Source: a virus
Virus record (IMG/VR): IMGVR_UViG_3300022804_000001
Reading direction: 5' to 3' (one strand)
Length of the DNA stretch: 64,000 nt
Shown here: positions 4,243-17,784 of the stretch, in pieces
Position numbering within the stretch: the stretch's first letter is position 1
How the letters are laid out: each line of letters begins with the position of its first letter
Position numbers and translations under genes: made by a program
Notes under the pieces: generated by a model
The model's database searches: none
Seen by the model: the letters and a program-made list of their open reading frames with translations, nothing else
Told to the model about the DNA's origin: nothing

Positions 4243-4410
4243 CTGGAATGACCCCGAATAAAAAGCCGTTTGTGGACGCTCGCCAAGTGACCCATATGGT
4301 ATATTCAGAGATCAATCAGTCTCAGAAAGTGTAATACACTTTTTACTTACTTACAAGAGAGTAAGACTCAAAATCCCCTTTACTATATAACTGGAGAATG
4401 ACCCCAAGTA
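4243..4410. repeat. direct repeat pair CTGGA(GA)ATGACCCC(G/A)A(A/G)TAAA
   Basis: Copies at 4243-4260 and 4391-4410 share the 10-mer GAATGACCCC plus flanks. They lie in the non-coding region upstream of the Rep-like gene. Confidence 0.5.
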
Positions 4411-4463
4411 AAGATGTTTTTGAATCCAAAAAGGACTTAATGACTTAAGGACTTTTTGTAAAA

Positions 4464-4574
4464 GTTTGTCAAATGTTTAAGGATTTTTAATGAATAAAAA
4501 CCTAAATGTCCCAGTGTAGTAAGTTTGAAACTGATAGTATTTTATCAAATTTTGTTAATGTTTGTCAAATGTTT
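4464..4574. repeat. direct repeat pair GTTTGTCAAATGTTT
   Basis: Exact 15-mer at 4464-4478 and 4560-4574. Both copies are followed by TAATGAATAAAA (about 4489-4500 and 4605-4616). Candidate operator or iteron sites. Confidence 0.55.
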
Positions 4575-4606
4575 TTTGTAAAAAACTTAATTTTAGGAGA
4601 ATTCTA

Positions 4607-5593
4607 ATGAATAAAACTGTAAATAACGGTATAATCGATTCAAATTCATCTTCTCAACTCCCTTTATTCTCCCCAAATTCTGATCATTTAGACGACTCTA
4701 AAATCCAAGAATCGACGATGCAGGTGCCGTGTGGTGCTTTTAGCATATTCGATTTATCGTGTCATCGTTTGAATGAGTTTGATCGTGCTGTTTACTGGAT
4801 GATCAATGAGCATAGCAATTGGGATACCGGTATATCTCACGGTTTACCGTATCGTGTTTTGACAGATTTATTGAATGTGAATCATTCATCGCAAGTGAAG
4901 CGTGCTGTTCGTCATTTGATTGATGCGGGTTTTTTAGAGATTGTGGGTAATCGTCTGAGTGATGGAGCGAATATTTATCGTGTTATTCACCACAAGTGTT
5001 TACCGGATGAAGTTCCATTAGATAAAGATAATCGTCCTTTGAAGTGTGCTGTTCCTCGTGGTAAGGGTTCTGGATCATCGTTATTATCTAAGGGTGAGAT
5101 TAGTTGGCGTGAGTTTGTGCAGTGGATGGTCAATAAAGTTTCATCGGACTGGAGTACGGGTGAAGTTCTGATGACGGTTAATATGGCGAATGATCGTCTT
5201 AGGCTGAGTGGTCAAACGATATGTAATTCATTTAGGAGTTTGGAAGCGTCTGGTTTATTGGAGCGTATTTCAGCCAAGTTTCGTGCGAGTATTTTCCGTA
5301 TTTTCCCTAAGCCGTATCCAAAGCGTAAGGATCGTGCGGAGGATAAGGGAAAAAAGCCTTTGCCGAGGATAGGTGATTGGTATTATAGTTATAATAGGCG
5401 TTGGTGTTTTCATAAGGACAATTTTCATGTATTGAGGAAGGATGAGTTTGGGAAGTGGCGGGATAGTAGTATGCAGGAGTTGTATAAGGTTAATGTTACG
5501 ATCCACTGTGATTTTAATGATTATATGTCAGCCTATGCTTCGGAAGAGTTTTCTGATGCTCTTAGCGACTTGAGATTAGCCTTATTGAATTAA
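4607..5593 (+). CDS. putative replication-initiator-like protein with two winged-helix segments
   Basis: ATG at 4607 follows AGGAGA (4595-4600); the track start at 4562 is TTG. VKRAVRHLIDAGFLEIVGNR and FRSLEASGLLERISAK resemble wHTH recognition regions of Rep/DnaD-type initiators. Repeats lie upstream and an AT-rich region downstream. Confidence 0.55.
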   Translation: MNKTVNNGIIDSNSSSQLPLFSPNSDHLDDSKIQESTMQVPCGAFSIFDLSCHRLNEFDRAVYWMINEHSNWDTGISHGLPYRVLTDLLNVNHSSQVKRAVRHLIDAGFLEIVGNRLSDGANIYRVIHHKCLPDEVPLDKDNRPLKCAVPRGKGSGSSLLSKGEISWREFVQWMVNKVSSDWSTGEVLMTVNMANDRLRLSGQTICNSFRSLEASGLLERISAKFRASIFRIFPKPYPKRKDRAEDKGKKPLPRIGDWYYSYNRRWCFHKDNFHVLRKDEFGKWRDSSMQELYKVNVTIHCDFNDYMSAYASEEFSDALSDLRLALLN

Positions 5594-5942
5594 AATTTGT
5601 TCCGCGCGTGCTAATTGAAATTGGTTAACCAAGAATTGGTACGTGAAAAAAGTAAAAAATTATGGCTTATGAATCCAGTGTTCATCAATGTTCATGGAAA
5701 ATCAAGAAAAAGGTTGGTAGCATAACCACAATGCCACATGTGATTTATAAAGATTGCAGGGTAACATATATTGTTTACTTAAATTGTGTTTTATTGGTTG
5801 GCATTAAAGGTGTTTGGAATTAGAGCGTACCTTCCTTAATTTCACTGGATTTAATAAGTTTTCAGATTTTAATCTTCATTATTTTTTCCTAAAAAATGAA
5901 GTATTACGTTTTTGTTTTAAAAATTAATTTGGAGTAAACATT

Positions 5943-6248
5943 TTGATATATTCCCAAGAAGCTTTGAATCTGATGGCGGATGACTTGTATGATCTTTTGT
6001 CTGGTGATGATGGTATAGCCCCTGAATATAATGTTGGAAATGAGGATCTTATTGCGGTTGACACGGTATACAAGCGTGTCAGAGAGATTCCATCGGAATC
6101 TGGGAAGCGTCTCAAGTATATTGATGAGTTTACTTTTCATATTCTGTTGGGTATTCTTTCGGAACGCAATAAAGTTGAGCTGCGTTCTGCGCATGGTCGG
6201 GGTGTTGGTTATTTTTTTCTGCTTAGGGTGATTGAGGAATCTGAATAA
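5943..6248 (+). CDS. hypothetical protein
   Basis: 101-aa ORF with TTG start 8 nt after GGAG (5931-5934). An alternative ATG lies at 5973. Confidence 0.4.
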   Translation: MIYSQEALNLMADDLYDLLSGDDGIAPEYNVGNEDLIAVDTVYKRVREIPSESGKRLKYIDEFTFHILLGILSERNKVELRSAHGRGVGYFFLLRVIEESE

Positions 6249-6255
6249 TATAGGA

Positions 6256-6278
6256 CAGGGGCGTGGCAACACTCCCTG
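6256..6278 (+). promoter_or_regulatory. GNRA-loop hairpin + TCCCTGATA element (class II, copy 1)
   Basis: CAGGGG(C)GTG-GCAA-CAC-TCCCTG, then ATATATCTTT and the ATG at 6289. No SD for the downstream gene. Confidence 0.6.
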
Positions 6279-6288
6279 ATATATCTTT

Positions 6289-6603
6289 ATGCCTGCAAAA
6301 TGTCAACGTTTACTAACTTATGATGGTAAAAAGAAACTGGGATACATATTTACTGATGGGTGTGTTCCCTTGATACAACAAACCCCGGTTAATGCGAGCT
6401 TACGCGGTTCACTTGAAAGTGTGTTCCTTGTTGACTGGAATGCATTAACAGAAGAACAGCAAGACGCAGTAATTCACTATATGATGGATAAATTTGATGA
6501 AGGAATTCCTGACCAAATTAGAATGGAGATTTCAGATAAAGGTCACTTTCCAATTCGTGATAAGTATATCATTGAAAGTTACGACATGCGTTATTTAATG
6601 TAG
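6289..6603 (+). CDS. hypothetical protein
   Basis: 104-aa ATG ORF directly after the class II hairpin. Confidence 0.6.
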   Translation: MPAKCQRLLTYDGKKKLGYIFTDGCVPLIQQTPVNASLRGSLESVFLVDWNALTEEQQDAVIHYMMDKFDEGIPDQIRMEISDKGHFPIRDKYIIESYDMRYLM

Positions 6604-6659
6604 CTGAAATTAGCACTCCGCTACACAGTCGTCAATCTGAATGAGTATTGGAGATATTC

Positions 6660-7010
6660 ATGCAATCACATGACACACAAACGATTCTTTCACATGTGCC
6701 AAAAGACGCAAAGGCAGTTGCGTTTTGTGTAACAGCGTCTGACAACATTCCAAAGTTTATAGATTTGGTTGTTGATAAGATGAGCAACGAGGATCTTGGA
6801 TATCAACGTGCTATTCTTGTTTATGAAAATACCATTCCTCGTTCTCAAGGGGAAAACATTCTAATATCCATCGTGAAGAAGCTCAAAAAGCGTCCGCAGG
6901 GAAATCGAGACATCCACATTCATGCCCAGACAGCAAGTCGAGATGAAATCAGTGAGATAGTCCAAAGATGCAAACAGACCGATCAAATAATGATTTGGAG
7001 AAACGATTAA
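6660..7010 (+). CDS. hypothetical protein
   Basis: ATG at 6660 lies 6 nt after GGAG (6650-6653); the track start at 6648 is TTG. Confidence 0.6.
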   Translation: MQSHDTQTILSHVPKDAKAVAFCVTASDNIPKFIDLVVDKMSNEDLGYQRAILVYENTIPRSQGENILISIVKKLKKRPQGNRDIHIHAQTASRDEISEIVQRCKQTDQIMIWRND

Positions 7011-7055
7011 AGTATCTTGCTAAGCGGTCTTATCGGAAAATATGTAAGGAGACAC

Positions 7056-7649
7056 ATGAACAAACGCAAACGTAGAAATAAAAGAATTGAACCACCCAAC
7101 GCTAAAATCACGCGCACTTCAGAACCCAAATCTGCGACATTCGCTACTTATGTAATGGACGCTATAAGTATCGTTGAATATCATCCTGATGACAAAGCAC
7201 AAGACCCGGCAACCCAAGTCCACGTTCTCATGCGGATAAAAGACTATGATGAGGCTGTTTTTGCATTGCGATTCAAAAAACCTGAGATACTCGGTTTCTT
7301 TATAGAAGAGCTTATTGCATTTAGGAAGCATGTCTGGGCAGATGCGGAATCTGTCAACCCGGATGTTGTTATTACAGATGACCAGTTCTCGAGTAATGAT
7401 TTGCTTGATAATCTTGAGGAAGAGGTTACGATATTATCTGAAGGGTATTATCGTTGTTCTGATTGTAATCGGATAGCATTCCTGATGTCTGACGGTAGCA
7501 CGATGACGACCTTTGATGAGCACTTACGTTTTATGGATAAACACAGCATTCCGGATGGGTTTGAAACTGAAAATCTACCACTCAACATCTGTCCGGCTTG
7601 TGATGAGTCCATCCCAAAGAGGTTAAACAATCATAATGGACAATCTTGA
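7056..7649 (+). CDS. hypothetical protein with basic N-terminus and C-terminal zinc-ribbon-like CxxC pairs
   Basis: ATG at 7056 follows AAGGAG (7046-7051). N-terminus MNKRKRRNKR. CSDCNR ... CPACDE motifs near the C-terminus. Confidence 0.6.
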   Translation: MNKRKRRNKRIEPPNAKITRTSEPKSATFATYVMDAISIVEYHPDDKAQDPATQVHVLMRIKDYDEAVFALRFKKPEILGFFIEELIAFRKHVWADAESVNPDVVITDDQFSSNDLLDNLEEEVTILSEGYYRCSDCNRIAFLMSDGSTMTTFDEHLRFMDKHSIPDGFETENLPLNICPACDESIPKRLNNHNGQS

Positions 7650-7857
7650 TCTTGAAAAGTTGTTTGATCCAGTTCTGGTGCAGATCTATAACATGGAAGT
7701 ATCGGAATACGGGAAACCGTTTGTTGTGTGTCGCGACCATTTGGAAAAGTTGGAAAATCGGTTGCGAAAAAATACGGAAGGCATTTGTCAGGTTTCTATC
7801 ATCGCATTATTCCCGCTCAATCAAGTTTGCCAAGAGTGCGATGAGGACAATGTATAA
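7636..7857 (+). CDS. hypothetical small protein (CxxC near C-terminus)
   Basis: 73-aa ATG ORF overlapping the previous stop by 14 nt. Preferred over the overlapping 7646-7897 frame. Confidence 0.5.
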   Translation: MDNLDLEKLFDPVLVQIYNMEVSEYGKPFVVCRDHLEKLENRLRKNTEGICQVSIIALFPLNQVCQECDEDNV

Positions 7858-7872
7858 GGAGAGAATAAGCCA

Positions 7873-8079
7873 ATGCGATGGGTCACAGAAGAAATGAAGA
7901 AAAAGTTTGTAAGCCTACATAATGAGGGAAAAACCAACACAGAAATCGCCGAAATAACAGGTTACCACCGCGTTACCGTTGGAAAACATCTTATCGAACT
8001 TGTCGGATACCAAATAGAGCCAAAAAACTGGAAGGAATTCCGACTTCAACTCGAAAGAGACAGGAAAGCAAAAGAATAG
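7873..8079 (+). CDS. small helix-turn-helix protein
   Basis: 68-aa ORF with AAGGAG RBS. KTNTEIAEITGYHRVTVGKHL is a typical HTH. It is the last gene of this rightward cluster. Confidence 0.65.
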   Translation: MRWVTEEMKKKFVSLHNEGKTNTEIAEITGYHRVTVGKHLIELVGYQIEPKNWKEFRLQLERDRKAKE

Positions 8080-8169
8080 TATTCATGTTAGTATTTCTCC
8101 TGTTCATAGTTGTAATAATCGGTCTATGTGTTATTTTTATTCGGAGCATTTAGGGTTTAATATCGGTAA

Positions 8170-8418
8170 TCAACTTGGTTTTGATTCTTTTTTTATTTTT
8201 TCTATTTCAGATAGGATTGTAAGTAATATCTCCTCAGCATCTTCTCTGCTTGTTTTTTTGGGGTCTATGACGATTTCATCTAAGAGTTCTTCTCCTGTTA
8301 TTAGGTTCTTGCACTTTACTTGAACGCCAAACTGCGATTTTTCATAGTATGTAAATTGGTCTCCTAAACAGATTATATTTGCTGTCGTCTGAATGTTTTT
8401 ATCTGCTAAATAGTCCAT
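8170..8418 (-). CDS. hypothetical soluble small protein
   Basis: 82-aa ORF from the internal ATG (8416-8418) of the 148-aa track ORF, whose own start is TTG. It begins 10 nt after the stop of 8429-8635. No SD. Confidence 0.4.
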   Translation of the reverse strand: MDYLADKNIQTTANIICLGDQFTYYEKSQFGVQVKCKNLITGEELLDEIVIDPKKTSREDAEEILLTILSEIEKIKKESKPS

Positions 8419-8428
8419 TGAGTTTATA

Positions 8429-8635
8429 TTATTCAAATATATAGAAAATCCAAAGTAAAACTGAAGCGGGGACAGCATACTTTCCGATAATACCGTGAAT
8501 AGAAAAAAAGAGAATACCACCAAAATAAACCATCCCAATAGTAAGAGCAAGTTTGTATGCCACAGGTTTATCAGGCATAATTGCAAATATAAATATACCG
8601 GTAATTGCTGAAGCAAGTATTGTGTTTTCTATCAT
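8429..8635 (-). CDS. small two-TM membrane protein
   Basis: 68-aa ATG ORF with two hydrophobic helices. It is the first gene of a short leftward unit divergent from the early genes. Confidence 0.5.
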   Translation of the reverse strand: MIENTILASAITGIFIFAIMPDKPVAYKLALTIGMVYFGGILFFSIHGIIGKYAVPASVLLWIFYIFE

Positions 8636-9111
8636 AATCGGTTAATTCCAGTGAGTTTATTTAGTATAAAAGATTGTATCATAGAAACAGGAAACAGGCG
8701 TTATGTTTTTAACATTTCGGTGTATTTTCTGTGTACAAATTCGGCATAATCCTATTCTATTTTCAATTTACCTATTGTTAACCGATTGAGACAGCAAAGT
8801 TTTTTTTCGTCTCACAATCGGGAATTGCCTCAAAATTCCGAATTATACGCTATGTATACGATATGCTATCCTATGCGTATGTAGTCTCCGTCTGAATTAT
8901 CAACCTTTCTCTCCCCAAAATTATTTTTTTATATTATTTTTCGTGTGTGTGATTAGTCGTGGCACTACGCCCTGTATAGGTTTGTGTGTCCTAAAAGCCC
9001 CTATACCCCCTCTTGCCTTGTAAAAATCTGATGTAGTTGATTTCTGACTGGCGCGGTCGTCTGATCTTGTCGTCGTGCATCCAGATTGGTATATTTTCGT
9101 TGATCTCGTGA

Positions 9112-9173
9112 TTGAATGACACAAAAGGACACTTTTAGGTCATTCAAAACACCAGAAACACATCAAAACACCA
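9112..9173. promoter_or_regulatory. long hairpin plus TCAAAACACCA direct repeats
   Basis: TTGAATGAC-AC-AAAAG-GACA-CTTTT-AG-GTCATTCAA (9112-9147). TCAAAACACCA occurs at 9144-9154 and 9163-9173 (19-nt period). The element sits inside an ~830-nt non-coding region. Confidence 0.4.
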
Positions 9174-9448
9174 TCCAAACAACGAAAACACTTGACAAAA
9201 TATCCGTTATGTGATACGCTATGATATACTATAATCCAAGTGTTTTACATAGATATACCTAAAGATATAAAAGATATATCAATCGTTGATAAACCTTGAT
9301 TATACTTGACTTTCTGAAGATTAAAAAATGTCTTGGAGAGGCAAGGAACACACAATTAACCAGTAATTGTATAGTTCATTGACAAGTAAATAAAAGCGGT
9401 CGGTTGACTATTCCCAAAGCATCGGGTGACGGTCAAAAGGCTGTATTA

Positions 9449-9458
9449 CCTAACGGAG
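9449..9458 (+). promoter_or_regulatory. CCTAACGGAG translation-initiation motif (class I, copy 1, no GC hairpin)
   Basis: ATTACCTAACGGAGAGGTAACATG precedes the ATG at 9466. Confidence 0.7.
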
Positions 9459-9465
9459 AGGTAAC

Positions 9466-9762
9466 ATGGTATCAATACACGGTCACGAGATCACTGTACT
9501 GAATCACGGAATATCCGATCATGCAATAGGTGTAGACATCAAACGTCACGCAAAAATAGAAATTAACGGAAAATTGGAAATTGGTGACGTGGTATTCACG
9601 GAAACAATAAGGGAATATTACGAAATGAAGTTTCACTTAAATAGTCGGTTAAATAGGTGCATATTGCACGTTGCGGCACGTGATGAATTCACGAATCTAC
9701 GTGTTAGACTTCAGAACATGAAACCCATCACAACCGTCATTGGTTCGGTCATTGATTGGTAA
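9466..9762 (+). CDS. hypothetical protein
   Basis: 98-aa ATG ORF behind the class I motif. Confidence 0.7.
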   Translation: MVSIHGHEITVLNHGISDHAIGVDIKRHAKIEINGKLEIGDVVFTETIREYYEMKFHLNSRLNRCILHVAARDEFTNLRVRLQNMKPITTVIGSVIDW

Positions 9763-9768
9763 CAACAC

Positions 9769-9806
9769 GGGCGCGGTCTAATGATCGCGTCCATTACCTA
9801 ACGGAG
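9769..9806 (+). promoter_or_regulatory. class I element: GC hairpin + CCTAACGGAG (copy 2)
   Basis: GGGCGCGGTC-TAAT-GATCGCGTCC (9769-9792; 10 bp, 2 G-T in the plus sense), then ATTACCTAACGGAG (motif 9797-9806). ATG at 9814. Confidence 0.7.
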
Positions 9807-9813
9807 ATACTCA

Positions 9814-10173
9814 ATGAATGAAGTGACTGCACAGATACAAGCGAAAAATGACGCGCTAAGGCAAGGGCTATTTACACCAGAAGGTGGCATGTGTTCGGTC
9901 ACGCGTGGCGTGCATGATCTACCAGTAGAAGCAAAGGCTCAAGTTTTATTGGCAGTCAAGAATTATGATAACTTCAACGAGGACAATGATCCACACGGAG
10001 AACACGAATTCGGAATCGTTGAACTTGAAGGAATTCCCAAAGTATTCTGGAAGATAGATTATTTTGAAGATGCGAAAATGGATTGCAACCCAGATTCAAA
10101 CTTTGGGGAAAATGAAGAAGATTTTATAAATGCTTATCGCTTGCTTACAATCATGTTAGCAGATGAGTATTAA
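9814..10173 (+). CDS. DUF3768-like protein
   Basis: 119 aa. NDPHGEHEFG...VFWKIDYFED...YRLLTIMLADEY matches my recollection of the DUF3768 signature (NDPxGEHDFG / WKIDYYD / TIMLAxEY), a family common on plasmids and phages. Confidence 0.75.
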   Translation: MNEVTAQIQAKNDALRQGLFTPEGGMCSVTRGVHDLPVEAKAQVLLAVKNYDNFNEDNDPHGEHEFGIVELEGIPKVFWKIDYFEDAKMDCNPDSNFGENEEDFINAYRLLTIMLADEY

Positions 10174-10182
10174 ACAACCAAT

Positions 10183-10222
10183 GGGCGCGTCGTTGGGCGC
10201 GTCCAACTTATACCTAACGGAG
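10183..10222 (+). promoter_or_regulatory. class I element (copy 3)
   Basis: GGGCGCG (10183-10189) pairs with CGCGTCC (10198-10204); the region also reads as the direct repeat GGGCGCGTC x2. CCTAACGGAG at 10213-10222. ATG at 10231. Confidence 0.65.
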
Positions 10223-10230
10223 AAATAACC

Positions 10231-10932
10231 ATGACTTATGACATTCAAGACGAGCGGAACGAACGCGAAAAGAGGGCGACGTGGGGTTTTGTCGTTTGCA
10301 CGGCAGACTTCGGAGACTACCGAACATACGTTGCACGTCCAGTCAAAGAAAAGGGCGAGGCGGACGTAATTATGAACGTAATGCAGAATCGTGATGACCT
10401 CAAACGCGTACGTTATGTGTGTGGCACGGAAACAAAAGAGGGATTAACATACCGTCCACGATTGCGAGAAAATGAACGCGTCTATATTCACAACTTCAAT
10501 TCCTTTTTACCTCAAAAAGAATGTGTGCATGTAGGTGCGCGTGTCTCTTATTATCCAATACGCGGCAATATAGAAGTTTCTAAAGAGTTGAAGCATGGGG
10601 TCACGGAGGTTGTTATCGGTGGAGATAGAGGCGGACGTGCATTGGCACTTGATGAGTGGATAATCTCTGAATTGCTACCGAACAAAGATTTGCATCAACG
10701 TGACGACCAGTGGCGCGCATGGGTAATCGGTGATGATTATATTCATCGTGTTTTGGACTTGCTACTTATTGAGAATCAAGCAAACCAGCGTCACGATGCT
10801 CTGGTAATGATGCGAAACTATCAACGAGAAACGTTTGATTATTTCATCGGTGACGAGATCCTTGATGCAGAGGCTATCGTAGATCTATCCACAAAAGAGG
10901 TGAAAGGCGTTTTATTGACACTTACCTCGTGA
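10231..10932 (+). CDS. hypothetical protein
   Basis: 233-aa ATG ORF behind a class I element. Confidence 0.7.
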   Translation: MTYDIQDERNEREKRATWGFVVCTADFGDYRTYVARPVKEKGEADVIMNVMQNRDDLKRVRYVCGTETKEGLTYRPRLRENERVYIHNFNSFLPQKECVHVGARVSYYPIRGNIEVSKELKHGVTEVVIGGDRGGRALALDEWIISELLPNKDLHQRDDQWRAWVIGDDYIHRVLDLLLIENQANQRHDALVMMRNYQRETFDYFIGDEILDAEAIVDLSTKEVKGVLLTLTS

Positions 10933-10967
10933 ATTCCTTTTATCGTGTTGGATACACGAAAGGAATT
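10932..10967 (+). other. interrupted 14-bp hairpin at gene end
   Basis: AATTCCTTT-TAT-CGTGT-TGGAT-ACACG-AAAGGAATT overlaps the stop codon of 10231-10932. No U-tract, so it is not a canonical terminator. Confidence 0.35.
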
Positions 10968-11075
10968 ACTGATTGGCAACTATGGCGATGATTCGGCATA
11001 CTTGAAAATGGACAGTAGTATGTGCAAGCAGATAACGGCACACTATGCACAATTTATGAAATCCTAATCTAACAC

Positions 11076-11113
11076 GGACGCGATCTGTTGGTCGCGTCCA
11101 CTACCTAATGGAG
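11076..11113 (+). promoter_or_regulatory. class I element (copy 4)
   Basis: GGACGCGATC-TGTT-GGTCGCGTCC (11076-11099; 10 bp, 1 G-T), then CTACCTAATGGAG (variant motif 11104-11113). ATG at 11121. Confidence 0.7.
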
Positions 11114-11120
11114 AAATGAC

Positions 11121-12266
11121 ATGAAAATAACTTTTGAAAAATCGGATCTACTGCATGCACTGAATCTTGTTAACGGTGCTTGCGGTGGGTCGGATACGTT
11201 ATCCATTCTCTCTTGTGTTATGATTTGTGGAGAGGCTGGAGTGGTTGAAATCACGGGTAACGACTTGGAAATAGCGGTAAAAGTAGAGACACCAGCGATC
11301 ATTGAAAAGGACGGAATGATCGCGGTACCTGCCAAGCGTTTATTGGAATTAGTGAAGGAACTGCCAACGGACAAACCGATTGATTTTGAAGCTTACGGGA
11401 ATAAGAACAAGGACGGGACGATAATTATTAATAAGCTAAAAATTACTTGTGGTGTTGATACCTATCACATGGTCGGTTTGAATGCGGATGATTATCCAGA
11501 GCGAGTAGAAGTAGAAGGGAAAACCTTTACGATAGCATGTAGCGAGTTACAAAATGTGCTGCGTCAAACGGAATTTGCAGCGTCTAAAGAAGGCTTTAGA
11601 TACCAACTCAATGCGATTTTCTTTAATCAGCACGAAGCGGTTGCAACGAATATGAACATCTTGGCAAGGGTTGCATGTCCTGTCCAAACACCAAAATTTA
11701 TTATTCCACTTCAAGCTGCAAAGGAACTACAAAAAACTTTGAAGCATTTAGACTCTGATATAGCTGTCACTGTTGGCAATAATCTGATAAGTTTTGTGTC
11801 TAACCATGTTACGCTGACAAGTCGCTTGATAACGGGAGAGTATTTGCTCTATTGGGAGATTATTCCGAAAAAATATTGGCTCACTACACCAATATTGGAG
11901 GAAGAGATAGAACTATTGACACATGAATATAGCGTTACCGTCTCTAAATCCGATTTTACGGAAGCACTCAAACGTGTATCTGTGTTTGCATGTGATAAGA
12001 CGTTCCTTGTCATTTTAGAGATTGAATCGGGTAAAATACATCTCTCGTGTGAGGATGATGAGGGTAGTTCAACCGAGTGGGTTGCGTGTTCGGGTTCGGG
12101 TTCGGTGCGTATTGGTCTTAACGCGCGTGCATTACTTGAAATTTTATTCCGTGTTGATGGAGAGTCGTTGGTGATTGAGTTTGGAGATGCTGAAACAGCA
12201 ATCCTTTTCAAATCATCGGATACGGATGATTTTATTAGTGTAATGGGTCCGATGTCTTTAGAATAA
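11121..12266 (+). CDS. dnaN: DNA polymerase III beta subunit (sliding clamp)
   Basis: 381 aa. MKITFEKSDLLHALNLVNGA...TLSILSCVMI...ITGNDLEIAV...VPAKRLLELVKELP aligns by eye with the DnaN N-terminus. The length is typical. Confidence 0.85.
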   Translation: MKITFEKSDLLHALNLVNGACGGSDTLSILSCVMICGEAGVVEITGNDLEIAVKVETPAIIEKDGMIAVPAKRLLELVKELPTDKPIDFEAYGNKNKDGTIIINKLKITCGVDTYHMVGLNADDYPERVEVEGKTFTIACSELQNVLRQTEFAASKEGFRYQLNAIFFNQHEAVATNMNILARVACPVQTPKFIIPLQAAKELQKTLKHLDSDIAVTVGNNLISFVSNHVTLTSRLITGEYLLYWEIIPKKYWLTTPILEEEIELLTHEYSVTVSKSDFTEALKRVSVFACDKTFLVILEIESGKIHLSCEDDEGSSTEWVACSGSGSVRIGLNARALLEILFRVDGESLVIEFGDAETAILFKSSDTDDFISVMGPMSLE

Positions 12267-12272
12267 CAATAT

Positions 12273-12362
12273 GGCGCGGTTTGAAACCGCGTCTGGGCAG
12301 AAGTAAAGGCTTAACGAAATAATAGGTATCTGTCCTACGGAGCCGCCTAAAACCTAACGGAG
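12273..12362 (+). promoter_or_regulatory. class I element (copy 5, extended spacer)
   Basis: Hairpin GGCGCGG(TT)-loop-(AA)CCGCGTC at 12273-12293. Degenerate CCTACGGAG at 12334-12342. CCTAACGGAG at 12353-12362. ATG at 12369. Confidence 0.6.
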
Positions 12363-12368
12363 AAATTT

Positions 12369-13109
12369 ATGAATACTCAAAACACGTTTCACAAAGGTAT
12401 GTCTACACCGTGGGGAAGTATCAACGAGTATACCAAGATCGCGGAAGGCATCATAAGTGTTTCAACCCCTGGTCATGGAGGTCTCTGGTTATCTGATGAA
12501 CGGATTGCACAACTACCAGAAAGTTATGAACCGTTTACAGGGACAAAGCGATGGGCAGAGGAAGATGAGGACGCAGCATTAGTGTTGCAATATCTTGGTT
12601 TGCTTTCATTGATACCAGAGCCATTAACGTTGGAAGTCACACAAGTGGACATTGACAAAGGGCGAGAAAGCCGTAAAACTGCTTGGTATGATACAAAACA
12701 GGGCGGTCCCATTGTGGAAGCCTACAAACGCGTCACGGGGGACGATTGTGGTGAAATGCTTTGCCATAAGTATTTGTCTCCAAAGCCAGGTGGTTTTAGA
12801 TTAGCTATACTCTGCGATGCTGCGATAGCATTCATGCATGCGTTTGATGCAGGTGAGAACGTTGATACATCAACTTTCACATTAGAGCCATATATTGTTT
12901 ATGAACGTGTGAAATTTACTCTCACCGATAAAGACGGCAAGGAATGGATTGATAAGGTTAGCGGTTTCATGGCAAAGCGTATACTTGAAGGGGACAAAGA
13001 GACGTGGGATTTCTATGAACGCATCTATGTCACCGATAAAATTGCTAAAGTGACTCACGAGGACAAAGTTATCTGGGAACGTGAATCAGAGAGCAAGAAT
13101 TACAGCTAA
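12369..13109 (+). CDS. DUF7007-like protein (TPWG...HGG...W.EED signature)
   Basis: 246 aa. MSTPWGSINEYTKIAEGIISVSTPGHGGLWLS...RWAEEDEDAALV resembles a plasmid/ICE-borne family as I recall it. Needs HMM confirmation. Confidence 0.55.
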   Translation: MNTQNTFHKGMSTPWGSINEYTKIAEGIISVSTPGHGGLWLSDERIAQLPESYEPFTGTKRWAEEDEDAALVLQYLGLLSLIPEPLTLEVTQVDIDKGRESRKTAWYDTKQGGPIVEAYKRVTGDDCGEMLCHKYLSPKPGGFRLAILCDAAIAFMHAFDAGENVDTSTFTLEPYIVYERVKFTLTDKDGKEWIDKVSGFMAKRILEGDKETWDFYERIYVTDKIAKVTHEDKVIWERESESKNYS

Positions 13110-13116
13110 AATAATA

Positions 13117-13150
13117 GGGCGCGGCTATGCCGCGTCCACACCTAACGGAG
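13117..13150 (+). promoter_or_regulatory. class I element (copy 6)
   Basis: GGGCGCGGC-TAT-GCCGCGTCC (13117-13137; 9 bp, 3-nt loop, 1 G-T), then CCTAACGGAG at 13141-13150. ATG at 13159. Confidence 0.7.
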
Positions 13151-13158
13151 ATGTAATA

Positions 13159-13653
13159 ATGAAATTACGCACTTTTGAATGGAACGGAGACTGGGAAAAT
13201 TGTCGTGCTGCTGCGGATTCTGGAAAGTTTGACGCGGGCTTGGCAAAGATGGTGGGTAAAAAAATGTATAAAGCATACCGACTTGAACAAGGCTCGGATG
13301 AACCTATGAAAGTTGGTTGGTCAATGCTAACGTCACATACTTTTGATGTGTTGTGGACAACTCACGAGAGAGTAAAACACTTATCCGAAAAAGAGGCAAA
13401 GGTTTTATTTCTTGCTGCAAGCGATATATTTCAGAAGTTAGAGTTTGGCGGTAGAACTACAGCGGAAAAACACGATGATTTACGTGACAGGATGTCAAGG
13501 CTCTGCGAAATGGCTTATGAAATGAATCTTGTTATAGATAAGCACGTGGATTATGACTGGGACAAATATGAAAGCCGATGGGAACAGGTTGAAGAAATGG
13601 AGGAAGAATATCAAACTCTCTTTTCTGAAACAGTACGGATATACAGCAATTAA
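13159..13653 (+). CDS. hypothetical protein
   Basis: The in-frame ATG at 13159 follows the class I motif. The track start at 13081 lies inside the previous gene. Confidence 0.65.
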   Translation: MKLRTFEWNGDWENCRAAADSGKFDAGLAKMVGKKMYKAYRLEQGSDEPMKVGWSMLTSHTFDVLWTTHERVKHLSEKEAKVLFLAASDIFQKLEFGGRTTAEKHDDLRDRMSRLCEMAYEMNLVIDKHVDYDWDKYESRWEQVEEMEEEYQTLFSETVRIYSN

Positions 13654-13659
13654 CAACAT

Positions 13660-13698
13660 GACGCGTCCATTTGGGCGCGTCTATTACCACCAACGGAG
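13660..13698 (+). promoter_or_regulatory. class I element (copy 7)
   Basis: GACGCGTCC-ATTT-GGGCGCGTC (13660-13681; 9 bp, 1 G-T), then the variant motif CCAACGGAG at 13690-13698. ATG at 13706. Confidence 0.65.
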
Positions 13699-13705
13699 GT
13701 AAATT

Positions 13706-14140
13706 ATGGCTATACCTGATCTTAATAAAGGCAATTTTGTTGTATGTAATGATGGTAGGCGGGGATATGTAACAGAGATTGAAGTTGATCGCTATAACAA
13801 CTCAATATGGGTTTGGGTATCAAATGACGATGGAAACGAATTTGAAATTTCTTTTTGTGCTATAACTCACATCATGCGGAAACGCGTCTTTGTAGCAACT
13901 CTCAACGTATCACTTCGGGCAGGATTGAGTAAGGAAGTTAGAGAGAACTATCGTAAATTTGAGTATCGCTTGTGGTTTGTCGCAGATGATATGGAACATG
14001 CAAAGAAAAAATGGTGGGATATTGCTAAATCACATCGGTTAAAAATATCGTTTGGCTTTATGAATACAGCATGTACAGTATATGACATTGTGACAGGTAG
14101 AAAATGGGATGTTAAACTGAAGGAACATAGAAAATCATAA
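13706..14140 (+). CDS. hypothetical protein
   Basis: 144-aa ATG ORF behind a class I element. Confidence 0.7.
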   Translation: MAIPDLNKGNFVVCNDGRRGYVTEIEVDRYNNSIWVWVSNDDGNEFEISFCAITHIMRKRVFVATLNVSLRAGLSKEVRENYRKFEYRLWFVADDMEHAKKKWWDIAKSHRLKISFGFMNTACTVYDIVTGRKWDVKLKEHRKS

Positions 14141-14185
14141 CGCAACGCTGGTGCGCGAGGCAGGGTTCAATTCCTTGCTTGCGTA
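14140..14185 (+). other. tRNA 3'-half mimic (T-arm + acceptor 3' strand); candidate attP core
   Basis: CAGGG-TTCAATT-CCTTG (14161-14177) carries all the invariant T-loop positions (G53 T54 T55 C56 R57 A58 ... C61), followed by 7 nt (CTTGCGT) and A. ACGCAA at 14140-14145 pairs with TTGCGT at 14079+100 offset, i.e. 14179-14184. There is no D-arm or anticodon arm, so this is not a full tRNA. Confidence 0.5.
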
Positions 14186-14239
14186 TTTTGTATCTGATGG
14201 ACAGATACAAACAGGGCAAGACAATAGTCCTACCCTGTA

Positions 14240-14298
14240 CCTAACGGAGAAATTCCACCTAACGGAGAGTTTCTCCAGTCTCAATTTACCTAACGGAG
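14240..14298 (+). promoter_or_regulatory. three tandem CCTAACGGAG motifs (class I copies 8-10; two are orphans)
   Basis: Motifs at 14240-14249, 14258-14267 and 14289-14298. Only the last is followed by a start codon (14305). The second overlaps the small hairpin GGAGA-GTT-TCTCC. Confidence 0.7.
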
Positions 14299-14304
14299 GA
14301 ATTT

Positions 14305-14562
14305 ATGTCAAGACAAAAGAGAAAAGGCACACCACTTACTTACGATCCTGTTCCATGCGAGGTTGATGTCTATGTAACTTTTGAAGGAAAGGATGCTGAA
14401 GAATGGAGCGAAACGTGGAACGCAGTTATTACAAAATCTGGTAAAATAGATGTTATTCACGGTAATGGCAAAGAGTATCGTTCAATGGAGGAACTAAAGG
14501 ACGATTATGTTGTCGGTTACTGTGTAGAAACACGCCACACCGTTGGCGTAGAAGTCAAATAG
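14305..14562 (+). CDS. hypothetical protein
   Basis: 85-aa ATG ORF behind a class I motif. Confidence 0.65.
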   Translation: MSRQKRKGTPLTYDPVPCEVDVYVTFEGKDAEEWSETWNAVITKSGKIDVIHGNGKEYRSMEELKDDYVVGYCVETRHTVGVEVK

Positions 14563-14587
14563 AGAGGCTAACGATAAATCAATGAGG

Positions 14588-14609
14588 CAGGGGCGTGCAA
14601 GCGTCCCTG
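14588..14609 (+). promoter_or_regulatory. class II hairpin (copy 2)
   Basis: CAGGGGCGT-GCAA-GCGTCCCTG (9 bp, 2 G-T, GNRA loop), then ATATTCT and the ATG at 14617. No SD. Confidence 0.6.
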
Positions 14610-14616
14610 ATATTCT

Positions 14617-15132
14617 ATGTATGAATACGAAGAACAAGTAATAGAAATCACGAAAGGCAAGGTTGAAGGCAAAAACTGCGTCTACGAGTTTATACTCGGT
14701 TTTTGTGAAGGACCCGTTTATCCGTATATCACCATAGACTATTGGGTACTTCCCGATGGTGTGTCAACAGACAAATTCGCTGGACGTTCTCCACAAGGGT
14801 TGGTAAGCGTTCTGACCGAAAAGAATTATCCTGTTCCTGCTATATTAGAACTTTGGCAGGAACAAACAAAACGGGTTACAAATTCAATGTTATCTGGTGC
14901 TGAAGATATGACTTTGGACGGCTTGAGACAGCATTATGTCAAACAACTTACGGAGGACGATATTAAAGAGTTTATCCGCCAAGAAGTCAGTGAGATGTTC
15001 CAGGAAACAACCATTACCCTTGCATTACATACATACTGGGGAATCAGAGCAGCCAATGATTGGAACGAAGGTCTTGAACAGATATTATTGCAACGATATG
15101 GAGGAGAGGCAGAGACATGCGAATGTCCCTGA
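14617..15132 (+). CDS. hypothetical protein
   Basis: 171-aa ATG ORF directly behind a class II hairpin. Confidence 0.65.
   Translation: MYEYEEQVIEITKGKVEGKNCVYEFILGFCEGPVYPYITIDYWVLPDGVSTDKFAGRSPQGLVSVLTEKNYPVPAILELWQEQTKRVTNSMLSGAEDMTLDGLRQHYVKQLTEDDIKEFIRQEVSEMFQETTITLALHTYWGIRAANDWNEGLEQILLQRYGGEAETCECP
15110..15131 (+). promoter_or_regulatory. class II hairpin (copy 3)
   Basis: CAGAGACAT-GCGA-ATGTCCCTG (8/9 bp, GNRA loop), then ATACAACA and the ATG at 15140. It is embedded in the 3' end of the previous gene. Confidence 0.55.
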
Positions 15133-15139
15133 TACAACA

Positions 15140-15424
15140 ATGAGAGGAATAGCAAGAACGTTGAAACATCAAAAACTTCGGAAGCGGTTTCCTGAAGGTG
15201 TCTCTATGTTCATTCATCAAGTATCACCGTTAACTTGGAAGTTGCGGATTATCTGTCTAAAGCAAGAACGTCTAAAGCAAAATTGTGTTTTCGGTACGTT
15301 AACACATGACGGTGGCGAGTCTGGGAGAGAAATTCTCACAAGTAAAATGTCGCATATTGAGAAAGTTCTTCGCCAAGCAGGTGTTACTCCGATCATCACA
15401 CCAAAGGAGGATATAAATGAGTAA
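15140..15424 (+). CDS. hypothetical protein upstream of integrase
   Basis: 94-aa ORF from the in-frame ATG at 15140 of track ORF 14936-15424. The start is chosen because class II hairpin copy 3 sits 8 nt upstream. It overlaps the integrase start by 8 nt. Confidence 0.45.
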   Translation: MRGIARTLKHQKLRKRFPEGVSMFIHQVSPLTWKLRIICLKQERLKQNCVFGTLTHDGGESGREILTSKMSHIEKVLRQAGVTPIITPKEDINE

Positions 15425-16157
15425 AGGTATGCGTCCACTTTCAAATGTGGAAATTGAAAAAGTCACCGAAGCATTACGTGCGTCCGATGGTATGTATAGC
15501 GTTCGCAATACTGGACTTTTTTTGCTTGGTGTATCTGTAGGCGGACGTATCTCCGAGATGTTGTCTCTGACAATCCGAGATGTTTGGGATTTCAAAGGGG
15601 ATAAACCGATTGATGATTTCTATTTTCGGAAAGAGATTGTCAAAGGCAAAGAGGAAGCGCGTCGTGTTCCATTGAACCTTGATGGTCGGAATGCTATCGG
15701 TATGTTAGTCGCTTGGCAAGAGACGCACACAGGTAGCATAAAGCCTTCTGATCCGCTCTTTCTTTCACGCAAAAGCGATTCTGATGGAAATAAGCGACCT
15801 TTCCAACGTAAGCAGGCTGAACGCATACTCAAGAATGCGTTTGCAGCTGCAGGGCTTACAGGAAGGCTAAATACCCACACATTACGAAAAAGTTTCGCGA
15901 CGCGTCTTTACAATGTGCGTCGCGATATTGTAGCAGTGCAAGAGGCGTTAGGTCATGCTTCAATCGTGACCACACGCGAATATCTTGGTGTGGACTATAG
16001 TATGCTGCGGTCGGATGTGGAACGGATAGCAATTGCAGCGGGACCAGAGAACACCACGCCAGTTTGTCGGGCAACAGATGAAGAACTGATGGTAGAACTT
16101 CTCAAGCGCGGATACCATAACCTAAAAGACGAAACGAGTAATGACGAGATTCAATAA
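15417..16157 (+). CDS. int: tyrosine recombinase / phage integrase (short form)
   Basis: 246 aa with AAGGAGG RBS. GGRISEMLSL (catalytic Arg box) and HTLRKSFATRLY...EALGHASIVTTREYLG (H-x-x-R ... Y) are classic tyrosine-recombinase motifs. No N-terminal arm-binding domain. Confidence 0.85.
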   Translation: MSKGMRPLSNVEIEKVTEALRASDGMYSVRNTGLFLLGVSVGGRISEMLSLTIRDVWDFKGDKPIDDFYFRKEIVKGKEEARRVPLNLDGRNAIGMLVAWQETHTGSIKPSDPLFLSRKSDSDGNKRPFQRKQAERILKNAFAAAGLTGRLNTHTLRKSFATRLYNVRRDIVAVQEALGHASIVTTREYLGVDYSMLRSDVERIAIAAGPENTTPVCRATDEELMVELLKRGYHNLKDETSNDEIQ

Positions 16158-16213
16158 CGGTTTTTAGGTGTCGTTATTTTCAGAATCATCTATAATCTTG
16201 TGAGGAAAAATAA

Positions 16214-16570
16214 GTGAAAGCAAAAGATAAACTCAAAAAATGGGTTGACGAAAACCCTGAAGGTTATCTTGAAATGAGTTTCAGAGAGATAGCTAATGAG
16301 ATTGGTATTAGCCACGCAACTGTTGACAGAAACTTAATCAGAATTATCGCTGAACGTGACGGTCTGCTTCCATCTCAAGTAAAATTCAAACGGAGCGAAG
16401 CAGGCTTCACTTTTACTACCGCGGGCGATACGAAGCTCTCTGACGAGCAAATTAACAAAATCCAGGAGTTGTGGAATCAAGGGTTCTATGATCTTGACGA
16501 TATAGCATACATTGTTAAAGTTGATAAACGGACAGTTGAGAAGTATCTGTCAAAAATTGAAAGGAGTTGA
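16214..16570 (+). CDS. DNA-binding protein with two HTH-like segments
   Basis: 118 aa, GTG start 8 nt after GAGGA. MSFREIANEIGISHATVDRNL and DLDDIAYIVKVDKRTVEKYL are the HTH-like segments. Confidence 0.6.
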   Translation: MKAKDKLKKWVDENPEGYLEMSFREIANEIGISHATVDRNLIRIIAERDGLLPSQVKFKRSEAGFTFTTAGDTKLSDEQINKIQELWNQGFYDLDDIAYIVKVDKRTVEKYLSKIERS

Positions 16571-16571
16571 A

Positions 16572-17237
16572 GTGAACGCGTTAGTCCCAATCCAAAAGAA
16601 ATATGAAATACAAGATCATGGTCTCAACCTTTTCTTTTACAAAGACAACAGGGAATATCTGTTTGTTTTTGAGGATAAAGAATCCGATATAGACATTGAG
16701 CATCATGAGGGTAGACTTATCTATATTCCGTATTCACTGATGCTTGTAGATGCGTTTTACAATGGCGTGCTAACACCCATGGATATGATGTTACCTTGCA
16801 CTGATACCGATGCGAATTCTATGTTAGCGTGGGTTATTATTCATACTATTAGTGATCGGCAAAACAGACCACCTGGCATGACTGCAGCCATGTCCATCAC
16901 GCTCAATTGTATGCTATGTGCAGTTGCTCGCGAAAAAATAACGTCACTTGATCCACAGGTAGTCGCTCTGATCGATATAGAAAAAGTTAATTTTTTTGAG
17001 AAGTTATTCGCTGGTGAGAAGATCGCCGATGACGATGTATCTACTCGTGACAGTGTCATGATGCTTGTTGCTGAGTACGTTGACCAGTTTTTTGAAGATT
17101 GTGTAATACCGCTATACGAAGGAGATGTTTCAGGGCTTATCAAGACAATTTCTGGCTATTACAAAAGGTTTGCGGAATCCATAGCGGATAGAGTAGATGT
17201 TATTCAATTTCACCCTGAAGTATTGGAAAAATTATAG
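16572..17237 (+). CDS. hypothetical protein
   Basis: GTG at 16572 lies 5 nt after AAGGAG (16561-16566). The track start at 16512 lies inside the previous gene. Confidence 0.55.
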   Translation: MNALVPIQKKYEIQDHGLNLFFYKDNREYLFVFEDKESDIDIEHHEGRLIYIPYSLMLVDAFYNGVLTPMDMMLPCTDTDANSMLAWVIIHTISDRQNRPPGMTAAMSITLNCMLCAVAREKITSLDPQVVALIDIEKVNFFEKLFAGEKIADDDVSTRDSVMMLVAEYVDQFFEDCVIPLYEGDVSGLIKTISGYYKRFAESIADRVDVIQFHPEVLEKL

Positions 17238-17239
17238 AT

Positions 17240-17767
17240 ATGAAAAATGAATTCTACCATTATTCACAAAAACCGATCATTAACCTAAACCAACAAGAAA
17301 TTGTGTTTGGTGATACCTACGATGAAAAACGTAAGCATGGTAAATACCACTTATGTCCTTTCATGAAACCTGATGGTTTTTGGTTTTCCCCGGAAAATGA
17401 CAAGCAAGAGTATGATGGCAGTTGGCGCGACTACTTGCAACAAGAATGTCACGGAGGTGAGCTTTTAAATTACAAGTATCATGTGGAGTTAGCATCGTGT
17501 GCGAACTTATTGATATTAGATACAGTTGCAAAGATGTATGAGTTTAACAAAAGGTATTTGTTGTATTACGAAGAGCCGGTGCTTCGTTCACTTGCGATTT
17601 TATGGCAGAAAGTTGCTTTAGACTATCAAGGTATCATCATAGCACCCTACCACGATTCTCTACGGTTACATCCAAATTTTCGTTGGTATTACCTCTGGGA
17701 TTGTGCATCGGGCTGTGTATGGGATATATCGGCAGTTCAATCTATTAAACTACAACAAGGTGGTTAA
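17240..17767 (+). CDS. hypothetical protein
   Basis: 175-aa ATG ORF, the last gene of the rightward block. Confidence 0.6.
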   Translation: MKNEFYHYSQKPIINLNQQEIVFGDTYDEKRKHGKYHLCPFMKPDGFWFSPENDKQEYDGSWRDYLQQECHGGELLNYKYHVELASCANLLILDTVAKMYEFNKRYLLYYEEPVLRSLAILWQKVALDYQGIIIAPYHDSLRLHPNFRWYYLWDCASGCVWDISAVQSIKLQQGG

Positions 17768-17784
17768 TTTTGACCACCCTTTTC
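17759..17784 (+). terminator. hairpin at the early/late convergence point
   Basis: GGTGGT-TAATTTTG-ACCACC followed by CTTTTC. It overlaps the stops of both convergent genes. Confidence 0.4.

Follow-up and report, generated by a model that had tools for sequence, protein, structure and literature searches.

The window analysed here is the whole 64,000 nt of IMG/VR record IMGVR_UViG_3300022804_000001, a phage genome in which three early genes carry a short GNRA-capped hairpin (the Class II element) lodged between a block resembling a Shine-Dalgarno (SD) sequence and the start codon. The reading we favour, to which we give about an even probability, is that this element is a split (non-contiguous) ribosome binding site (RBS) used as a repeated cassette at mosaic junctions. 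As we envisage it, the cassette in the polycistronic early transcripts would consist of a stop codon, 3-4 nt, AGGR, a G+C-rich GNRA hairpin of 9-10 bp, a tail of 7-11 nt and the start codon. The linear SD-AUG distance of 29-35 nt would be too far for initiation, and a fast-folding hairpin would loop out 22-24 nt and leave only the tail between SD and AUG. The 30S subunit could then bind the SD with the AUG placed in its P site, and the SD:anti-SD helix may stack on the hairpin and so aid the weak SDs of AGG type. Because the upstream stop lies about 7 nt from the stem, the cassette would also couple neighbouring cistrons translationally, the terminating ribosome being handed to the SD. In silico we found a distant SD-like block, a stable predicted hairpin between it and the start codon, a tail that holds no SD, and a structure kept in relatives. 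We infer that the AGGR flank is used as the SD and that folding is needed for, or compatible with, initiation.

The three copies in the window

The window has exactly three Class II copies, all on the plus strand, namely c1 (6256-6278), c2 (14588-14609) and c3 (15110-15131), and the start codons downstream of them are the ATGs at 6289, 14617 and 15140 respectively. These copies and starts had been proposed in a preliminary description made from the letters of the window, and they were recovered as such, with no fourth copy above 10.2 bits. A covariance model was built from three ungapped 10-bp copies, and a later model (R2) was built from the copies of the window and of related contigs. On running R2 over both strands of the 64 kb with filters off, c1 scored 41.8, c2 37.7 and c3 32.5 bits, and the next-best match in the window reached 10.2 bits. 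The exact 9-mer TCCCTGATA occurs three times, always on the plus strand, against an expectation of 0.39, and three occurrences were reached in 2 of 100 shuffles. Rfam gave no match for the whole window at gathering thresholds, nor for the hairpins within 14100-15200 at E<=10.

Each of the three copies folds as predicted in the plus sense. For c1 (CAGGGGCGTG-GCAA-CAC-TCCCTG) the fold has 9 pairs, a bulged C and a GNRA loop (-11.8 kcal/mol). The SD-like block AGGA (6252-6255) abuts its 5′ foot, 3 nt past the TAA stop (6246-6248) of the gene at 5943-6248, and the tail ATATATCTTT (6279-6288), 10 nt of A/U with no G, leads from the hairpin to the start codon. The second copy (CAGGGGCGT-GCAA-GCGTCCCTG; 9 pairs including 2 G·U, -15.0 kcal/mol) is abutted on its 5′ side by GAGG (14584-14587) and has the 7-nt tail ATATTCT (14610-14616). 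In c3 (CAGAGACAT-GCGA-ATGTCCCTG; 8 pairs and an A·C mismatch, -7.6 kcal/mol) the SD-like block is the strong GGAGGAGAGG (15100-15109; -9.3 kcal/mol against the anti-SD), which lies within the upstream coding sequence, and the tail ATACAACA (15132-15139) is 8 nt long.

Conservation and covariation in related phages

Beyond the window we found 17 further copies (in L012, L013, L024, L025, L026, L029, L030, L031, L032, L033 and L035, our labels for the related contigs), which makes a total of 20, numbered c1 to c20; L015 and L022 hold no Class II copies. To obtain the further copies we first scanned for hairpins with a GNRA cap and then searched with two covariance models. When the loop was left free, so that every hairpin flanked by an SD-like block and a start codon counted, the scan gave too much noise to be used. 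It may be noted that the majority of the relatives came from exact-protein look-ups in ENA and Logan assemblies. A DNA-pattern scan of IMG/VR gave 9 matches, of which 8 were unrelated, at about the chance rate, and L009 was the sole relative; protein-guided scans gave 2 distant loci in JGI metagenomes, 2 in IMG/VR and 1 in GTDB genomes.

The covariance-model search for extra copies and covariation, which the preliminary description had put forward as one way to check its claim of a selected RNA structure, bore that claim out on 17 distinct copies from 11 contigs. The hairpin is simple and almost ungapped, and the alignment (A6, 16 distinct rows) was fitted to the model; 98% of its cells pair, 8 of the 10 pairs have changed on both sides, and 27 cells are compensatory. 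None of 500 shuffles reached this covariation, and controls in which the 3′ partner was slid by 1-3 columns paired in 37-51% of cells. The foot also varies with compensation, to TAAGGGG/CCCCTTG in L013 and to CGAAGG/CCTTCG and CGGAAG/CTTCCG in L025 and L026. A count by hand over the 17 distinct hairpins gave 159 paired positions out of 164 in the sense strand, 19 of them G·U; in the antisense strand 143 of the 164 pair, 3 of them as G·U. The earlier statement that G-T pairs occur only in the plus sense thus holds as a bias, but not strictly within the window, where the A·C mismatch of c3 reads as G·T on the minus strand. Every copy has the orientation of the early genes around it, and this is true also of c8, which stands amid minus-strand genes of L013. 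The loop is GNRA (GCAA, GCGA, GTGA or GTAA) in 16 of the 17 distinct sequences, the exception being c16, a count that is partly biased as the search was seeded with GNRA loops. Predicted stability ranges over the copies from -5 to -23 kcal/mol.

At orthologous junctions the hairpin persists although the sequence drifts. It stands before the 104-aa gene in the window, L024, L029, L030, L033 and L013. It is likewise kept ahead of the 171-aa gene (c2 in the window, c17 in L032), at the end of that gene (c3 and L032 c18, with the A·C mismatch common to both) and upstream of the gene beginning MRGIAR (c3 and L031 c16). Taken together, the G·U bias, the compensatory pairing and the GNRA loops show that Class II is a selected sense-strand structure, for which an RNA hairpin is the natural reading.

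Two weaker hairpins share features with the element. The one at 5906-5936 of L033 (plus strand), CAGGAGCGAT-TCTAA-ATCGTTCCTG, is alike in foot and G·U and scores 13.6 bits with R2; its loop is 5 nt and non-GNRA, no start codon lies within 18 nt, and AAGGAG stands 8 nt upstream. The other, at 14211-14238 of the window (ACAGGGCAAGAC-AATA-GTCCTACCCTGT), has a CAGGG/CCCTG foot as in Class II. Its pairing is better when read on the minus strand, with 12 pairs including G·T, and on that strand a T-rich run follows; R2 gives it only 10.2 bits (minus strand).

Flanking block, tail and spacing

The 4 nt directly 5′ of the stem are AGGA, TAGG, AGGG, GAGG or GGGA in 20 of 20 copies. Predicted pairing with the anti-SD at the 16S 3′ end had a mean of -4.5 kcal/mol for the flanks of the first 15 copies found; random 10-mers gave -0.4 and the tails +2.6. 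The flank AATAAT-N2-3-AGGR is kept at the orthologous junction of the 104-aa gene in six contigs. In 13 copies an upstream open reading frame (ORF), 50 codons or longer, has its stop codon 7-10 nt ahead of the stem and hence 3-4 nt ahead of the AGGR block, and in c3 and c18 the upstream gene reads through the hairpin and has its stop in the tail. The tail is 7-11 nt in 18 of the 20 copies, A/U-rich and without an SD; ahead of a real gene (15 copies) the tails are 7-10 nt and hold 2 G in about 125 nt. In all copies that precede a gene, the AGGR block is 29-35 nt from the ATG along the linear sequence.

Ordinary early genes of the window, L029 and L031 were taken for comparison, and an SD-like 4-mer was found before 55 of 60, with a spacing that peaks at 7-8 nt and is 5-10 nt in 48 of the 55. 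With the hairpin folded, the residual SD-AUG spacing at Class II junctions equals the tail length, which is within the canonical range of these 55 genes. The three starts had been described as SD-less and possibly SD-independent, which does not agree with an AGGR-type block directly 5′ of each hairpin and a tail that equals a canonical SD-ATG spacing. The narrower remark that the ATGs lack GGAG is right for the tails of 7-10 nt, but not overall, since an SD-like purine block abuts every 5′ foot. The junction of the 104-aa gene ortholog in L012, which has no hairpin, reads TAG-TTTT-GAGGA-TATAAA-ATG, and that in the window reads TAA-TAT-AGGA-(23 nt)-ATATATCTTT-ATG. On this comparison the hairpin looks like an insertion into a junction that is canonical in other respects, placed precisely where the SD ends and the spacer begins. 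At the equivalent place L022 has a different hairpin, AGGTGCGCT-TACAA-AGCGCGCCT, after AAGGAAT.

Genes behind the hairpins

The starts at 6289, 14617 and 15140 all agree with the N-termini of orthologs. The 104-aa gene (6289-6603, plus strand) has no assigned function and has orthologs with the hairpin upstream in L024, L029, L030, L033 and L013; an AlphaFold model of its protein (pLDDT 79) had no PDB fold match at E<1. The start of the 171-aa gene (14617-15132, plus strand) matches the N-termini of nine homologs, and the last seven codons of this gene (AETCECP) together with its TGA stop (15130-15132) are encoded by c3 and its tail. The 94-aa gene at 15140-15424 (plus strand; MRGIARTLKHQ...) has an ortholog in L031 with 69% identity (MRGIARALKHQ), which starts 8 nt past c16. 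The suggestion that c3 supports calling this otherwise doubtful gene is strengthened by that ortholog, as it starts at the equivalent ATG behind a hairpin variant, and the gene is a real one, with its start at 15140. Automatic calls for it vary, the start being placed at 15098 in L018 and L019 and at both 15098 and 15140 in L021, and the gene being omitted in L020. Other mis-starts behind the hairpin are 17574 for about 17508 in L031, 8086 for 8053 in L029, and 667 for 655 in L025. Recognition of the Class II element therefore improves annotation, because automatic callers mis-start or miss the genes downstream of it.

Genomic context

A second family of repeats in the same early region is built of the box CCTAAYGGAG(A/G), in most cases extended to ACCTAACGGAGA; this is presumably the Class I of the preliminary description. 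The window has nine such boxes on the plus strand (9449-9459, 9797-9807, 10213-10223, 11104-11114, 12353-12363, 13141-13151, 14240-14250, 14258-14268 and 14289-14299), 7 of the 9 being 5-7 nt before a start codon and three standing in tandem ahead of 14305. A hairpin of the form GGRCGCG-loop-CGCGTCC precedes 5 of the 9 boxes and also a variant box before 13706, and these Class I hairpins are at approximately 9778-9793, 10189-10210, 11080-11101, 13118-13138 and 13661-13685 (plus strand), just ahead of their boxes. L031 shares the Class I family. The order of parts is the sole difference between the classes, being stop-hairpin-SD-ATG in Class I and stop-SD-hairpin-ATG in Class II. The two classes interchange at the same place in the gene order: after the gene ending ...EYQDLF the window has Class I, and L024, L030, L029 and L012 have Class II, and likewise upstream of DUF3768. 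In L024, c4 lies between the ...EYQDLF gene (homolog of window 13081-13653) and the DUF3768 gene (homolog of 9814-10173), and this junction corresponds to the window Class I junctions at 13706 and 9814.

Class II copies are found at mosaic breakpoints. The stretch over which the window and L024 are homologous starts 18 nt ahead of c1. In L022 the gene at 14617-15132 has a homolog with 80% identity, and both flanking hairpins are absent there. Also, the hairpin-encoded C-terminus AETCECP (AEACKCP in L032) stands in place of the variable native tails of the homologs. As to position, 19 of the 20 copies are within about 1.3 kb of a gene for a tyrosine recombinase of 200-250 aa, the exception being window c1, and in L012, L024, L029 and L030 one copy stands on each side of the recombinase gene. 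The copy c20 closes a gene and is followed by TATAATGCTATAAT and a 150-nt AT-rich spacer up to the recombinase gene.

Two observations were made beside these copies. A tRNA-like mini-element at 14140-14190 of the window (plus strand) has an acceptor-type stem (ACGCAA...TTGCGT) around a T-arm with GGTTCAATTCC, and 1-2 hairpins after it; it was also found in L024 (8575-8625), in L013 (about 8560-8595) and as three repeats in L015 (4811-4890, 5656-5735 and 6401-6480), and in four contigs it is 0.3-1.3 kb upstream of the recombinase gene. ARAGORN made no call for it, and at E<=10 there was no Rfam match. A host tRNA gene could have given rise to it as an attP core, or it could serve as a processing signal of RNase P type. 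In L025, between c15 and c13, a 12-codon mini-ORF (559-623, plus strand) holds a near-consensus promoter (TTGACA-17 nt-TAAACT) whose predicted start would put the GAGAGG block and c13 at the 5′ end of the transcript.

Alternative explanations

Several observations weigh against a split RBS. The copies with TAGG have a weak SD (-1.8 kcal/mol). Five of the 20 copies (c6, c8, c15, c18 and c20) are orphans with only mini-ORFs of 2-20 codons downstream, and because their hairpin and AGGR stay intact the element can evidently persist without a downstream gene. The CAGGGG/TCCCTG foot, the G·U beside C-G and the GNRA loop are common to unrelated genes, which is more than a spacer needs; the clustering near the recombinase gene fits pure SD-bridging poorly; and other intercistronic hairpins of these phages lie 5′ of the SD, which leaves room for a general role unrelated to bridging. 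A wider reading, which we rate as rather improbable, would have the hairpin and AGGR form a self-propagating intercistronic cassette that is at the same time a specific recognition site, either for a factor that reads GNRA hairpins and so times the translation of a small early regulon, or for the adjacent minimal tyrosine recombinase reading folded sense-strand DNA. Unlike pure SD-bridging, this would account for the shared foot, the orphans, the mosaic breakpoints and the recombinase clustering. If true, its recombinase-read version would be a miniature integron-like system moving single genes between phages.

The hairpin might instead be a general intercistronic structure serving the upstream cistron, as a stabiliser of its 3′ end, a partial terminator (attenuator) or an endonuclease landmark, with the proximity to starts following from tight packing. 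We consider this unlikely, even though the upstream stop is close by (7-10 nt ahead of the stem in 13 copies, within the tail in c3 and c18), the orphans c6, c15 and c20 close a gene with no real gene next (c20 having promoter-like boxes in its spacer), the stop-hairpin-SD-ATG arrangement occurs at many other junctions of these phages, and at some junctions the hairpin travels with the upstream gene while the downstream gene differs. The tails are also often U-rich (ATTTTCTT, ATTTTATT, TATTTTTTA) and c2 is flagged as terminator-like. Of the features of an intrinsic terminator, the G+C-rich hairpin is there, and the U-tract varies: c2 alone of the window copies passed a terminator scan, several relatives have U-rich tails, and the tails of c3, c13, c14, c17 and c18 hold 0-4 U. 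Against a general structure of this kind, the tails ATACAACA, TATAAAC and AGACCAG have no U-tract, and canonical U-tract terminators are present elsewhere in the window, for example at 17759-17778. Moreover, termination or cleavage in the tail would strip the downstream genes of their ribosome binding site, and the invariant AGGR, the SD-free tail and its canonical length would be left unexplained.

That the hairpin is an operator, by which a phage or host RNA-binding protein would co-regulate a small early regulon as a translational repressor or activator or as an antitermination factor of the boxB/N kind, seems to us quite unlikely. Such a protein bound 7-11 nt from the AUG would control access of the 30S subunit, and features beyond pairing (the CAGGGG/TCCCTG foot, G6·U next to C7-G, the GNRA fold) are indeed common to unrelated genes; also, the early protein encoded at 7056-7649 begins with a Lys/Arg-rich stretch, MNKRKRRNKR. 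Yet the foot changes by compensation even between copies within L025, so structure rather than sequence is kept, the early proteins have no RNA-binding or antiterminator family match in Pfam and PHROG scans, and a look through the fetched parts of L013, L025 and L026, all of which bear hairpins, did not turn up the K/R-rich protein. Among the fetched loci, no early gene is present or absent in step with the hairpin. In lambda and P22, boxB is a pentaloop on a stem of 5 bp; it goes together with a boxA and occurs once per early operon downstream of the promoter without being tied to start codons. Class II is like it in being a small hairpin of GNRA-type fold in early phage transcripts, but its geometry is unlike that of nut sites. 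The boxB-like antitermination site offered in the preliminary description was rejected for its geometry, as the stem is 9-10 bp with a tetraloop, no boxA-like sequence is conserved, and the hairpin is tied to starts at several junctions.

A role in DNA, as a recombination site or cassette boundary (possibly a folded single strand) for the small tyrosine recombinase or as a recombinogenic linker in the manner of the PeSL cassettes of T4-type phages, is in our judgement very unlikely. It would agree with the location of all copies but window c1 within about 1.3 kb of a recombinase gene, which is flanked on both sides in the four contigs named above, and with the copies at mosaic breakpoints, where the upstream protein has lost its natural C-terminus to c3 or c18. 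But the clustering is explicable by inherited gene order, and in each copy, c8 included, it is the mRNA sense that shows the G·U bias and the GNRA loop; the SD-like flank and the fixed distance to the start codon serve no recombination role. A tyrosine-recombinase core consists of two arms around an identical crossover of 6-8 bp, and integron attC sites are 57-141 nt with R''/L''-L'/R' boxes. The Class II element, at 22-24 nt, is too short for a core site of two monomers, its central 8-10 bp are unlike between copies of one genome, which would block classical strand exchange, and neither core sites of R'/R'' type nor a GTTRRRY core are present; tested for membership, it did not fall among either kind of site. 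Lastly, the ...CCCTG-A-TAnnnn tail may be taken for an extended -10 element (TGnTATAAT-like), as most tails read TG-N-TA(T/C)... (TGATATATC, TGATATTCT, TGATACAAT) and c20 has a perfect TATAAT. We find this scarcely credible and rejected it, for the hexamer ends 0-4 nt before the ATG and transcription would begin in or beyond the start codon, yet ortholog N-termini support those ATGs. In addition, the T at position 6 of the hexamer is missing in about half of the copies, and a consensus scan was at chance level (50 vs 44.5) with no promoter-like site at the three window copies.

Comparison with known systems

To our knowledge, split ribosome binding sites are known only from a few single-gene cases, namely T4 genes 38 and 25 and E. 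coli thrS and rpmE. In T4, the hairpin of gene 38 cuts an SD-AUG distance of 22 nt to 5 nt, and that of gene 25 cuts one of 27 nt to 11 nt; the gene 25 site is at the 26-25 intercistronic junction, and mutations that destabilise the structure lower translation (PMC3014915, PMC7297116; original work in Gold 1988, Nivinskas et al. 1999, and Malys & Nivinskas 2009, reviewed in PMC3014915). Class II is like these sites in that SD and AUG are far apart linearly and a stable hairpin would bring the spacing to 5-11 nt, and in that the structure is kept among related phages and absent in more distant ones. As with T4 gene 25, the site may overlap the upstream gene at an intercistronic junction, which is the case for c3. 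The T4 sites, however, each have a single gene-specific hairpin, whereas a related GNRA-capped hairpin of 22-24 nt recurs here at several unrelated junctions per genome, and at least seven types of Class II junction were found across the related genomes. Also unlike the T4 sites, Class II lies at mosaic breakpoints and has some orphan copies, its role in initiation being a predicted one. The principle of the split RBS is thus already known from T4, and what would be new is a repeated, transferable, GNRA-capped split-RBS cassette. In the non-contiguous initiation regions of E. coli thrS and rpmE (Sacerdot et al. 1998; PMC7297116) the hairpins are operators bound by the gene's own product. Class II would resemble them as a stable stem-loop that the ribosome tolerates inside the initiation region, where it would arrange the initiation elements, and differs from such autoregulation in that no such protein is known for it and the genes served are mutually unrelated.

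Two families of phage repeats are alike in kind. The start-associated sequences and their extended form (SAS/ESAS) of Cluster K mycobacteriophages directly precede the starts of some of the non-structural genes and are thought to be translational, their function being unproven; the 13-bp SAS box GGGATAGGAGCCC lies 3-8 bp before the start codon, with optional 17-bp inverted repeats upstream (PMC3203893). Like Class II, these are short one-orientation repeats at the starts of varied gene families, with the SD included and partly with inverted repeats. The sequence, phage group and host are different, and tested for membership Class II did not fall within SAS/ESAS, so that the resemblance is one of kind only. 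It may be noted that the inverted repeat of ESAS is upstream of the SD box, as in Class I of the window, a family that resembles SAS/ESAS, while the Class II hairpin is between SD and ATG. The PeSL (promoter-early stem-loop) cassettes, which are mobile regulatory units, have a strong promoter of sigma-70 type as their defining part; the stem-loop in them stands 5′ of the SD and serves as a terminator (PMC2839356). Class II is similar in being an intergenic stop-to-start cassette with a G+C-rich stem-loop containing G·T, repeated in plastic early regions at shuffling breakpoints. It differs in that a promoter consensus does not accompany its copies and the SD is 5′ of the hairpin, and on testing it was not a member of this family either.

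Phage group and other features of the window

The early/replication module lies on the plus strand at about 4.5-17.8 kb and includes a sliding clamp (11121-12266, plus strand), a tyrosine recombinase of 246 aa (15417-16157, plus strand) and DUF7007 and DUF3768 proteins. On the minus strand, from 18.5 to 64 kb, are genes for virion and tail proteins, for the portal (61737-63902) and for a giant protein of 2690 aa. No tRNA was found in the window by ARAGORN. A megablast of 4000-18000 gave no match to GenBank phages, and tblastn of the portal protein gave only a partial match (24%), with no cultured relative in the results. Identical or related contigs of 52-72 kb were found in ENA, Logan, IMG/VR and metagenome-assembled genome (MAG) assemblies, samples of the Tara series included; the phage is present, for example, in sample SRR10406136. 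The group is probably temperate, because relatives encode LexA-like repressors. Two relatives fall in bins, one in that of a Candidatus Poribacteria MAG and the other in that of an Acidimicrobiaceae MAG, and there is a hint of an association of the phage with sponges, with a sponge symbiont as host.

Some further features of these genomes were noted. The 2690-aa protein (18560-26632, minus strand) combines a winged-helix domain of DprA with a weakly matching JAB domain of RadC-like type, and its long linkers are rich in Pro, Thr, Glu and Gln; its counterparts in relatives are 4400-5000 aa long and have in addition methyltransferase and helicase (AAA_34, Helicase_C_4) domains. From its domains it looks like a polyvalent protein, perhaps an injected one. 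The protein encoded at 7056-7649 (plus strand) has the N-terminus MNKRKRRNKRIEPP... and a Cys-rich motif at its C-terminus, with no family match. L022 has a homolog whose initial 67 nt occur a second time, directly after the 170-aa gene (573-639 and 7601-7667, 94% identity). A 25-nt repeat, TTTTGTAAAAGTTTGTCAAATGTTT, occurs at 4454-4478 and 4550-4574 (plus strand) and also at 42626-42650. The pair is upstream of, or overlaps, the start of a 343-aa gene (4562-5593; weak HTH_36 and MarR matches), and it may be an iteron or operator pair heading the early region. Also, in four relatives a structured leader precedes a 66-aa gene on the minus strand (L029 13100-13175, L024 13477-13550, L033 10705-10780 and L012 19646-19720). 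It runs from a TATAAT-like box to TAGGGTGCGTGCTTGAAACTGCCCTATTGCGAGCACGCCCCCCAAGTTG-ATG and contains the interlocking complements TAGGG/CCCTA and GCGTGCT/AGCACGC, which could form a pseudoknot.

Significance

If the split-RBS reading of Class II is confirmed, one compact GNRA hairpin would be seen to be reused at many unrelated junctions in an uncultured phage lineage, with its compensatory evolution visible. For synthetic biology it would offer a naturally tuned insulator-plus-RBS design. For the phages themselves, a hairpin between SD and AUG would become a modular and transferable piece of gene organisation.

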